Positions 36,269 through 36,756 are shown, numbered from the stretch's first letter. The stretch is 38,194 bases of DNA from a virus (IMGVR_UViG_2925914267_000004); one strand, 5' to 3'. Made by a program: numbers and translations. The notes: generated by a model from the sequence alone, not told the origin.

Positions 36269-36328
36269 CAGGCAGAATTGCCGGAGTAACAAAAAAGCGA
36301 TAGATTACGTGCGGGTGCCTTTCGGCTG

Positions 36329-36541
36329 ATGGTCGGAGGGAATACCCGAAGGCCGGATGTGGAAAGGCCCCGGAAAACATTTCTGTTTAACCGAGGCCCT
36401 GACCATACAACCTTCGCAAGTCGTAGGTTAGCGCCTCTCCAACAAAGGAGCAAGCGCTATGTCGCAAAAATCGCTTACGGCCATCACGTTCTGCGTGACG
36501 GCAATCCTCATCATCTGGATGCTGCACGGTTCGCTGTGTGA
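36329..36541 (+). CDS. mok-like overlapping leader frame of the hok locus
   Basis: 70-aa frame starting upstream of hok and overlapping it out of frame, as mok does in hok/sok loci; weak on its own. Confidence 0.35.
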   Translation: MVGGNTRRPDVERPRKTFLFNRGPDHTTFASRRLAPLQQRSKRYVAKIAYGHHVLRDGNPHHLDAARFAV

Positions 36542-36599
36542 AATACGGATGAGTTTCTGGGGAGCGGAGTTTGCGGCGTTCTTACAGTGTAAGCAGTAA
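36459..36599 (+). CDS. hok: Hok/Gef-family type I toxin (46 aa)
   Basis: MSQKSLTAITFCVTAILIIWMLHGSLCEIRMSFWGAEFAAFLQCKQ: N-terminal TM helix then SLCEIR...EFAAF, the Hok family signature. SD AAAGGAG 7 nt upstream. Below the track's 60-aa cutoff, so found by reading. Confidence 0.7.
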   Translation: MSQKSLTAITFCVTAILIIWMLHGSLCEIRMSFWGAEFAAFLQCKQ

Positions 36600-36691
36600 G
36601 GAAACCGCGACGGGGGAGCAATCCCCCGTCAATCGGTTGCCAGGGCAAAGGTCGAAAAGGCACCCTATTTCCAGTTGACGTGAACAACAAG

Positions 36692-36723
36692 CCCGCAGCG
36701 TAAAAACTGCGGGTTTTCTTTTT
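36692..36723 (+). terminator. Rho-independent terminator (likely hok mRNA 3' end)
   Basis: CCCGCAG-CGTAAAAA-CTGCGGG followed by TTTTCTTTTT. Confidence 0.55.
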
Positions 36724-36756
36724 GGTTCCCTCACTCATGAGGACACCAAAAACAAA

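Follow-up and report, generated by a model that had tools for sequence, protein, structure and literature searches.

A hok/gef-family toxin locus, very probably an intact hok/sok module, carried as phage cargo beside the serS attachment site of a P88-like Escherichia coli prophage

The hok/sok locus (parB) of plasmid R1 is the founding system of the type I mechanism considered here. The R1 mRNA is closed by tac/fbi pairing, is processed at its 3´ end and switches to a tac-stem/ucb pairing, and R1 Sok has a 5´ tail that is single-stranded, its promoter overlapping the Shine-Dalgarno (SD) region of hok (PMC9841398). A second described system, hokW/sokW of the Shiga toxin 2 (Stx2) phages Sp5 and 933W (PMC8621323; AF125520), is prophage-borne and has been demonstrated to be a functional type I toxin–antitoxin (TA) system in which the antisense RNA is the antitoxin (PMC8621323). 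Here, a hok/gef-family locus is described in a stretch of 38,194 nucleotides from a virus (IMGVR_UViG_2925914267_000004), the whole of which is referred to as the window, and the R1 model of the mRNA and the R1 arrangement of Sok are proposed for it. The locus is very probably an intact hok/sok type I TA module, carried as cargo by a P88-like prophage (Xuanwuvirus, P2 family), between ogr and attR, at the E. coli serS terminator. From this analysis and the literature, the reading draws on membership of the Hok family, on the place of the peptide in a toxicity set in which it is not a failure, on conserved RNA pairings and on the position inside the prophage.

The toxin gene and its ribosome-binding site are as follows.
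36459-36599, + strand: hok toxin gene, 46 aa, MSQKSLTAITFCVTAILIIWMLHGSLCEIRMSFWGAEFAAFLQCKQ
36445-36450, + strand: hok SD, AAGGAG, 8 nt ahead of the ATG

A sequence-only reading of the window, made by a model, had reported a 46-aa open reading frame (ORF) of Hok type with a good SD, and both descriptions agree with the features above. The peptide passes the Pfam HOK_GEF threshold (PF01848; 29.9 bits vs a cut-off of 22), with residues 7-44 aligned to positions 5-42 of the 42-position model. RefSeq WP_000078916.1, annotated "Hok/Gef family protein", is identical to it, and the same locus is annotated as a hok/gef family protein in phage records of the P88 type. A preprint survey (Escalera-Maurer et al., bioRxiv 10.1101/2025.08.07.668861) reports that M1, C16, T18, L30, C31, E32 and E41 (its own numbering) are conserved in over 80% of Hok peptides. 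All seven residues are kept in the window peptide (M1, C12, T14, L26, C27, E28 and E37), and their columns are invariant in the alignment of homologous Hok peptides. The sequence-only reading had also proposed a comparison with the known Hok loci. This comparison places the peptide in the common Pfam family at low identity: 30% to Hok R1, 28% to HokW (51 aa), 24-28% to HokB, HokC, HokD and HokE of K-12, and only 24-33% over Hok R1, HokW, HokB-E and PndA together. K-12 hokA-E and the window gene share the Pfam family, the conserved Cys-Glu core and a predicted transmembrane N-terminus. The K-12 genes are fixed chromosomal loci and R1 hok is plasmid-borne, whereas the window hok is prophage cargo. 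No PADLOC model matches the Hok peptide.

This Hok type is already annotated and catalogued, and its peptide is in a published toxicity set. In the available part of the preprint, Hok 72_1621 is exactly the window peptide, belongs to a high-abundance cluster (cluster 72) and was cloned as LRP137. The same part reports that 42 of 45 tested Hok homologues were toxic and names 19_179, 60_1482 and 69_1540 as non-toxic; Hok 72_1621 is in the 45-member set and is absent from these three names. It further describes an enrichment of hok in prophages and islets of 2 to 6 hok copies, and it leaves Sok, mok and the mRNA elements unanalysed as hard to call (bioRxiv 10.1101/2025.08.07.668861). Gp52 of phage P88, annotated 'MokW-like host killing; hok/gef family protein', is a near-identical copy; its locus likewise follows ogr and has ~93% DNA identity to that of the window. 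A literature search pairing phage P88 with hok returned nothing, and the genome paper of enteroaggregative E. coli 042 mentions Hok/Sok only for a plasmid. Given the family membership and the prior description, the finding is therefore correct but ordinary, and the locus does not represent a new kind of system. What is gained in practice is the exact attR boundary and the placement of hok on the phage side. In addition, a type I toxin locus, long-range RNA pairing included, proved recognisable from raw sequence by a first-stage reader.

The position of the locus is defined by three neighbouring features.
36008-36268: ogr (Pfam Ogr_Delta)
36860-36879, no strand: attR core AAAGCGCCCGCAGGCGCTTT, identical with the serS terminator stem, the prophage/host boundary
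36902-38194, - strand: serS, with hok within 300 nt

The sequence-only reading had left undecided whether the locus is phage cargo or a host locus adjacent to the integration site, and had suggested that serS-proximal regions of prophage-free strains could place attR. The alignment of the K-12 serS-dmsA region with the window begins only at 36860 and runs to the end of the window, and in K-12 serS is directly adjoined by dmsA, without hok between them. The 20-bp core is common to K-12 attB, the attL of ON470599.1 (dmsA-int junction) and the window, which sets the boundary at 36860-36879; the hok terminator ends 137 nt inside this core. The locus directly follows ogr in P88, Chuche, P884B11 and other Xuanwuvirus genomes at 93-96% identity. 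In other strains, the ogr-hok pair is found at other attachment sites, beside ihfA and raiA. At its left end, the window carries the integrase and immunity region of this same type of prophage, and it is therefore nearly a whole prophage. As judged by these sequence comparisons, the locus lies inside an att-bounded element, occupies the same position in phage genomes and is phage cargo, not host DNA. A host chromosomal hok gene that happens to lie beside the phage integration site would also fit the short distance to serS and the presence of a hok-like match in ~1750 of 5426 E. coli genomes. This explanation conflicts with the K-12 junction, with the phage genome records that carry the locus and with its movement together with ogr to the ihfA- and raiA-adjacent sites; the att mapping rules it out, and its probability is vanishingly small. 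Among complete E. coli genomes, the segment 36270-36900 (hok, attR and serS-proximal DNA) is at least 80% covered in 291 of 5426, and the hok unit is at least 80% covered at ~73% identity or more in 1637 of 5426.

Three further observations concern the attachment region. Integration swaps the T-tract of the serS terminator (TTTTTTTG in K-12) for phage DNA (TTTAAGTA). One copy of the motif ATGGAC-N5-ATGGACAC lies near either end of the prophage (8-26 and 36796-36814), ~45-75 nt from the att core, and these two copies are probably arm-type binding sites of the integrase. Strain STEC1012 (L013; CP061270.1, 550-2060) carries three tandem 141-nt hok units directly beside serS; this record is labelled a plasmid though it is 1.2 Mb in size. 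Its att core is a variant one, the arm-like motif is again present, and the hok copies have no ogr between them.

On the sense strand, the locus contains the following transcript and RNA elements.
36278-36306, + strand: putative weak hok promoter, -35 TTGCCG (36278-36283), 17-nt spacer, -10 TAGATT (36301-36306)
36313-36723, + strand: predicted full-length hok mRNA of ~410 nt, 5´ end placed by homology and 3´ end by the terminator
36313-36327, + strand: tac-like 5´ element GGGTGCCTTTCGGCT, invariant in the alignment
36650-36665, + strand: fbi-like 3´ element GGTCGAAAAGGCACCC, partner of the 5´ element in the full-length fold
36313-36371, + strand: 5´ hairpin (tac-stem) of the processed form, with a 3´ half GAAAGGCCCC (36362-36371) equivalent to ucb, also a repeat pair
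36393-36397, + strand: GAGGC at the position of the mok SD of R1 and 933W; the surrounding GAGGCCCT (36393-36400) is constant among identical-peptide loci
36431-36440, + strand: anti-SD or dcb-like stretch GCGCCTCTCC, pairing with the hok SD region in the full-length RNA and with GAGGC in the shortened RNA
36609-36630, + strand: GC-rich hairpin after the hok stop, a repeat pair, likely the 3´ end and protector of the processed mRNA
36689-36723, + strand: intrinsic hok terminator, stem 36689-36716 (10 pairs) followed by TCTTTTT to 36723

These elements stand in the same order in 933W hokW and in an R1-type locus. The alignment comprises 18 homologues from four contexts: P2-like prophages, lambdoid/Stx phages, island-like regions (beside a TraG-like gene and an L31 paralogue) and IncI1 plasmids. 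A -10 of the form TA[GAC]A[TAG]T at a fixed distance from GGGTGCC, together with a TTGC-type -35, recurs in 16 homologues from different contexts, and the 933W layout (TAGAAT-N6-GGGTGC) matches that of the window. hokW/sokW and the window share the layout of a -10, 6 nt and the GGGTGC 5´ end, as well as GCACCC in the 3´ element, GAGGC, the post-stop GC hairpin and AGGTTAGC at the position of the Sok -10. The phages that carry hokW/sokW are lambdoid, whereas the window prophage is P2-like. The predicted 5´ end at 36313 is the start of the match to Rfam RF01794 'sok', which in practice describes the sense-strand hok leader (36313-36469, model positions 1-157 of 157, 41.8 bits, E = 9e-8), and the invariant GGGTGCC starts there in all homologues. 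The strong terminator noted by the sequence-only reading is present, with its stem at 36689-36716 and a T-tract ending at 36723.

The fold-back pairing of hok mRNAs, which the sequence-only reading had recognised, is confirmed in the window. The two 13-mers that it had paired, GGGTGCCTTTCGG (36313-36325) and CGAAAAGGCACCC (36653-36665), match ungapped at 11 of 13 positions. Exact complementarity covers 10 nt (GGGTGCCTTT/AAAGGCACCC, 36313-36322 vs 36656-36665), and the pairing reaches 15 bp if one A is bulged. The duplex has a predicted energy of -24.5 kcal/mol vs a mean of -13.6 for shuffled 3´ segments, and none of the 300 shuffles was as good. The fold of the complete 412-nt RNA has a z-score of -6.5, and in the minimum free energy (MFE) structure the 5´ end closes on the 3´ element. 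In single-sequence MFE folds, 13-15 of the first 15 nt pair with the 3´ element in 18/18 homologues, which carry at least eight versions of the 3´ element. Both partners have changed between subfamilies: CCUUUCGG/CGAAAAGG in the window, UUGAGG/CCUCAA in 933W and GGCGCUUGAG/CUGAAGCGCC in an R1-type locus.

The RNAalifold consensus of the 18 homologues is the 5´ hairpin (36313-36371), not the 5´/3´ pairing. Compensatory changes support this hairpin at columns 18/43 (UA to CG in five sequences) and 26/35 (GC to AU in five sequences). When the RNA is cut back to the post-stop hairpin, the 5´ end leaves the 3´ element in the MFE structure and pairs with 36362-36371. In the full-length structure, the GGCC at GAGGC pairs with the ucb stretch; in the shortened RNA, GAGGC pairs with GCCUC (36433-36437) instead. 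The post-stop GC hairpin is compensatory at four column pairs (302/327, 303/326, 309/320 and 310/318; RNAalifold, 18 homologues), and in the R1-type locus and 933W a hairpin also sits right after the hok stop codon. In R1, a terminal stem-loop of the processed mRNA guards against 3´ exonucleases (PMC9841398). The modelled folds of the window follow the same logic as R1, in which tac/fbi, tac-stem/ucb and SD/dcb pairings take part (PMC9841398), with tac-fbi pairing in all 18 homologues and with a tac-stem/ucb switch and a terminal hairpin in the folds, the processing step itself being predicted. None of the mRNA elements is disrupted; the 5´/3´ pairing, the hairpins and the terminator are all intact.

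Two features are placed on the opposite strand.
36361-36418, - strand: predicted Sok-like RNA of ~58 nt, with a ~20-nt 5´ tail, a GGGCCUCGG...CCGGGGCC hairpin and UUUCC; ends placed by analogy with sokW
36425-36453, - strand: putative Sok promoter, -35 TTGCTC (36453 to 36448), 17-nt spacer, -10 TAACCT (36430 to 36425)

The annotated 71-nt sokW of 933W (AF125520) starts 7 nt past TAACCT and ends in GGGGCUUUU, and the invariant AGGTTAGCGCCTC block occupies the position of the sokW -10. Among the 18 aligned homologues, the block AG[G/A]TTAGCGCCTC is near-invariant, with one substitution (L008). In a promoter-less sokW construct, alteration of the AGGTTAG block (primers YO-421 and YO-597) abolished the antitoxin activity, which sokW in trans partly restored (Takada et al., PMC8621323). 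The antisense hairpin folds in 16/16 homologues tested and takes several apex forms. Support for the apex comes from these single-sequence folds, as MAFFT fails to align the differing forms; RNAalifold on the 18 predicted Sok RNAs recovers nothing beyond the invariant basal stem and shows no compensatory pairs. Homology and conservation suggest a Sok promoter and RNA at the expected site. The sequence-only reading had suggested a search for them around 36380-36460; the candidate promoter block and a conserved hairpin are found at that place.

The leader varies among loci with the same toxin. The sample comprises the best 80 of 316 confirmed IMG/VR stretches (L022-L101), all encoding the identical Hok peptide and phylogenetically non-independent. 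With the window included, there are 25 different leaders, and 36 different sequences when the comparison runs from the 5´ end to the stop codon. The window shares its toxin with these cluster-72 loci, and its leader allele, the Sok-target stretch included, occurs in 0 of the 80. Within 36373-36424, the match to the predicted Sok 5´ tail (36401-36424) has a pairwise diversity of 0.20 and the hairpin apex one of 0.15, compared with 0.047 for third codon positions of hok and 0.02 for the 5´ hairpin. Among identical-toxin loci, the predicted Sok recognition stretch is thus ~4x more variable than synonymous sites, a difference suggestive of diversifying selection, or of recombination, in antisense recognition.

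The points that weigh against an intact module concern the family models, transcription and translation. The peptide stays below the NCBIfam cut-offs of the HokA equivalog (NF007290; 34 bits vs 89) and of the Hok-family subfamily NF007279 (21.6 bits vs 73), and by these scores it lies outside both named subgroups. By the HokA score it is also not a HokA orthologue. The toxicity assay, as given in the available part of the preprint, expressed only the coding sequence, under an arabinose promoter and behind a constant SD, rather than the native locus (bioRxiv 10.1101/2025.08.07.668861). The hok promoter scores 8/12 against the sigma-70 consensus, with a scanner limit of 9/12, and the putative Sok promoter matches at 6/12 only. 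The consensus scan reported no sigma-70 site on either strand, and both promoters were therefore placed by homology. The Rfam match, at 41.8 bits, lies below the RF01794 gathering threshold of 59. The transcription starts of hok and Sok are both inferred, and the two transcripts rest on sequence and homology.

On the translation side, two upstream ORFs of doubtful significance precede hok.
36329-36541, + strand: 70-codon ORF in the mok frame, starting 130 nt upstream of hok
36357-36431, + strand: 24-codon leader ORF, stopping at a conserved TAG 14 nt ahead of the hok SD

In R1, synthesis of Hok requires translation of mok (AUG 116-118) up to the hok SD (PMC9841398). The mok AUG of R1 and of 933W, where mokW is annotated, lies 7 nt past GAGGC; the window has ATA there (36405-36407). 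GAGGC itself is conserved, but at this start-codon position 0 of 50 distinct homologues have ATG, GTG or TTG; the codons found are GCA, ATC, GTC, CTT, TAT, ATA, CAC, TAC and TTC. The 70-codon ORF begins with an ATG 17 nt from the transcript 5´ end, within the tac region. In the 18 homologues, upstream ORFs start and stop at differing places, and many stop well before hok; the ORF tables of these 18 and then of 52 distinct homologues contain no shared upstream start or stop. A conserved mok frame is therefore rejected. The mok-like out-of-frame ORF of the sequence-only reading exists at 36329, 130 nt upstream as described, but as a mok-like element it is not conserved among the homologues. The frame and stop of the 24-codon ORF, which could couple the translation of hok, are shared by a minority of homologues only. 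A looser class, in which some ORF reaches the SD, takes in 48/52 homologues; it comes without a null model and is not used as evidence.

The hok SD is predicted to be paired in all three modelled states of the window (P(unpaired) of 0.00, 0.02 and 0.00). R1 needs mok, whereas the window and its relatives have no start codon at that position. A direct switch, in which 3´ loss bares the SD and the Sok duplex re-closes it, was rejected: in partition-function folds of 14 homologues the trend toward it is small and inconsistent, and in the window it is negligible. A mok-free model, in which GAGGC captures the anti-SD and frees the SD, has a small and inconsistent effect and is not claimed.

In an explanation without a functional Sok, hok would be silenced by its own mRNA folding only and the antisense-strand block would be kept as the anti-SD or dcb. 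The 6/12 score of the Sok promoter, the empty promoter scan, the location of the AGGTTAGCGCCTC block within the anti-SD pairing and the predicted pairing of the SD in all modelled states agree with it. However, the same block is the tested promoter region of sokW, and the antisense hairpin followed by U residues is kept in all homologues despite different apex sequences. The ~4x faster change in the match to the Sok 5´ tail is likewise hard to explain by sense-strand structure alone. Silencing by the mRNA fold only is accordingly improbable. A still smaller probability is given to a decayed, inactive relic, similar to the insertion-disrupted hok loci of K-12 and kept at the protected prophage end. 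The missing canonical mok start, an IS3-family insertion beside the tail-fibre gene, by which the prophage may be degenerating, and one homologue that is clearly a pseudogene (L018) would suit such a relic. Against decay, the ORF is intact, the identical peptide is in the toxicity set and unlisted among the non-toxic homologues in the available part of the preprint, and at least 80 of the 316 confirmed IMG/VR stretches encode it. Every RNA element is intact as well, and the same in phage records such as P88 and Chuche.

An intact hok/sok module is the favoured explanation, and for this module we propose the following sequence of events, in which 3´ processing and the expression and action of Sok are modelled on R1 hok/sok and 933W hokW/sokW. 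The weak promoter (TTGCCG-17-TAGATT) would produce a stable mRNA of ~410 nt from ~36313 to the terminator at 36689-36723. In the full-length RNA, 36313-36327 would pair with 36650-36665 and close the molecule, and GCGCCUCUCC would hold the hok SD. Slow 3´ trimming to the GC hairpin at 36609-36630 would then remove the 3´ element, after which the 5´ end would refold with 36362-36371 and GAGGC would be freed to pair with GCCUC. An unstable antisense RNA of ~58 nt (~36418 to 36361, from TTGCTC-17-TAACCT) would bind the refolded leader by its 5´ tail and block Hok synthesis. Antisense transcription could stop when the prophage is lost or induced, or when another phage shuts off the host; the stored mRNA would then be translated, and the 46-aa membrane peptide would kill or lyse the cell.

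Three roles are possible and are not distinguished by the present data: killing on prophage loss, help with lysis on induction, and exclusion of other phages. hokW/sokW helps lysis on induction (PMC8621323), and R1 hok/sok has been reported to exclude T4. A scan of 36000-36950 found no + strand terminator in 36000-36689. If there is also none from gpD to 36000, late gpD-ogr transcription could enter hok, and such read-through would fit the role of a lysis helper. The hok terminator would also halt read-through from gpD-ogr. One feature lies back to back with it, just inside the prophage, where repeat pairs are found.
36754-36783, - strand: terminator-like hairpin
This hairpin might keep serS read-through from entering hok in the antisense direction.

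Two small leads emerge: hok translation without a canonical mok, and a fast-evolving Sok target as the possible basis of specificity groups. The cluster-72 loci may represent a regulatory variant of hok/sok, in which the mok start is lost and the Sok stretch is diversifying into 'specificity types'; this proposal is tentative, and we regard it as rather doubtful. Candidates for a mok-less opening of the mRNA and its block by Sok are a three-way switch among GAGGC, GCCUC and the SD, or the short leader ORF with its conserved TAG stop. If the proposal is true, co-resident or competing prophages with the same toxin could not neutralise each other's mRNA, and Sok groups that do not cross-react would bear on prophage competition and addiction.

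Copies of the cluster-72 hok also occur in Stx2 phages (L006, L011 and L012; Stx/lambdoid), at 83% identity to the window. Where examined, their neighbours are lom-like or membrane-protein genes or gpJ on one side and tail-fibre or unnamed genes downstream. hokW occurs in other Stx2 phage records. Because both are found in Stx2 phages, these phages may hold two different hok/sok loci.

The remaining observations concern other genes of the prophage. An IS3-family element (25566-26722; orfA HTH_Tnp_1, orfB rve) lies directly after a 700-aa tail-fibre gene (23232-25334), and a prophage with this insertion may be defective in tail-fibre assembly or host-range switching. A serine invertase (28462-29079; Resolvase and HTH_7) adjoins two oppositely oriented genes, which encode a tail-fibre C-terminal domain (27743-28366; Gp53-like_C) and a tail-fibre assembly protein (27264-27749; Caudo_TAP); the whole region (27264-29079) looks like an invertible host-range segment of the Gin/Cin type. 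On the - strand, a DUF3800 protein (10605-11411) has a 119.9-bit match to PDC-M04A, a candidate defence family of PADLOC, and is possibly a second accessory or defence gene. The early region of the prophage encodes a full-length ParM/StbA actin-like segregation protein (9098-10057, + strand), with StbA_N at 275 bits and the ParM C-terminal domain at 232 bits.

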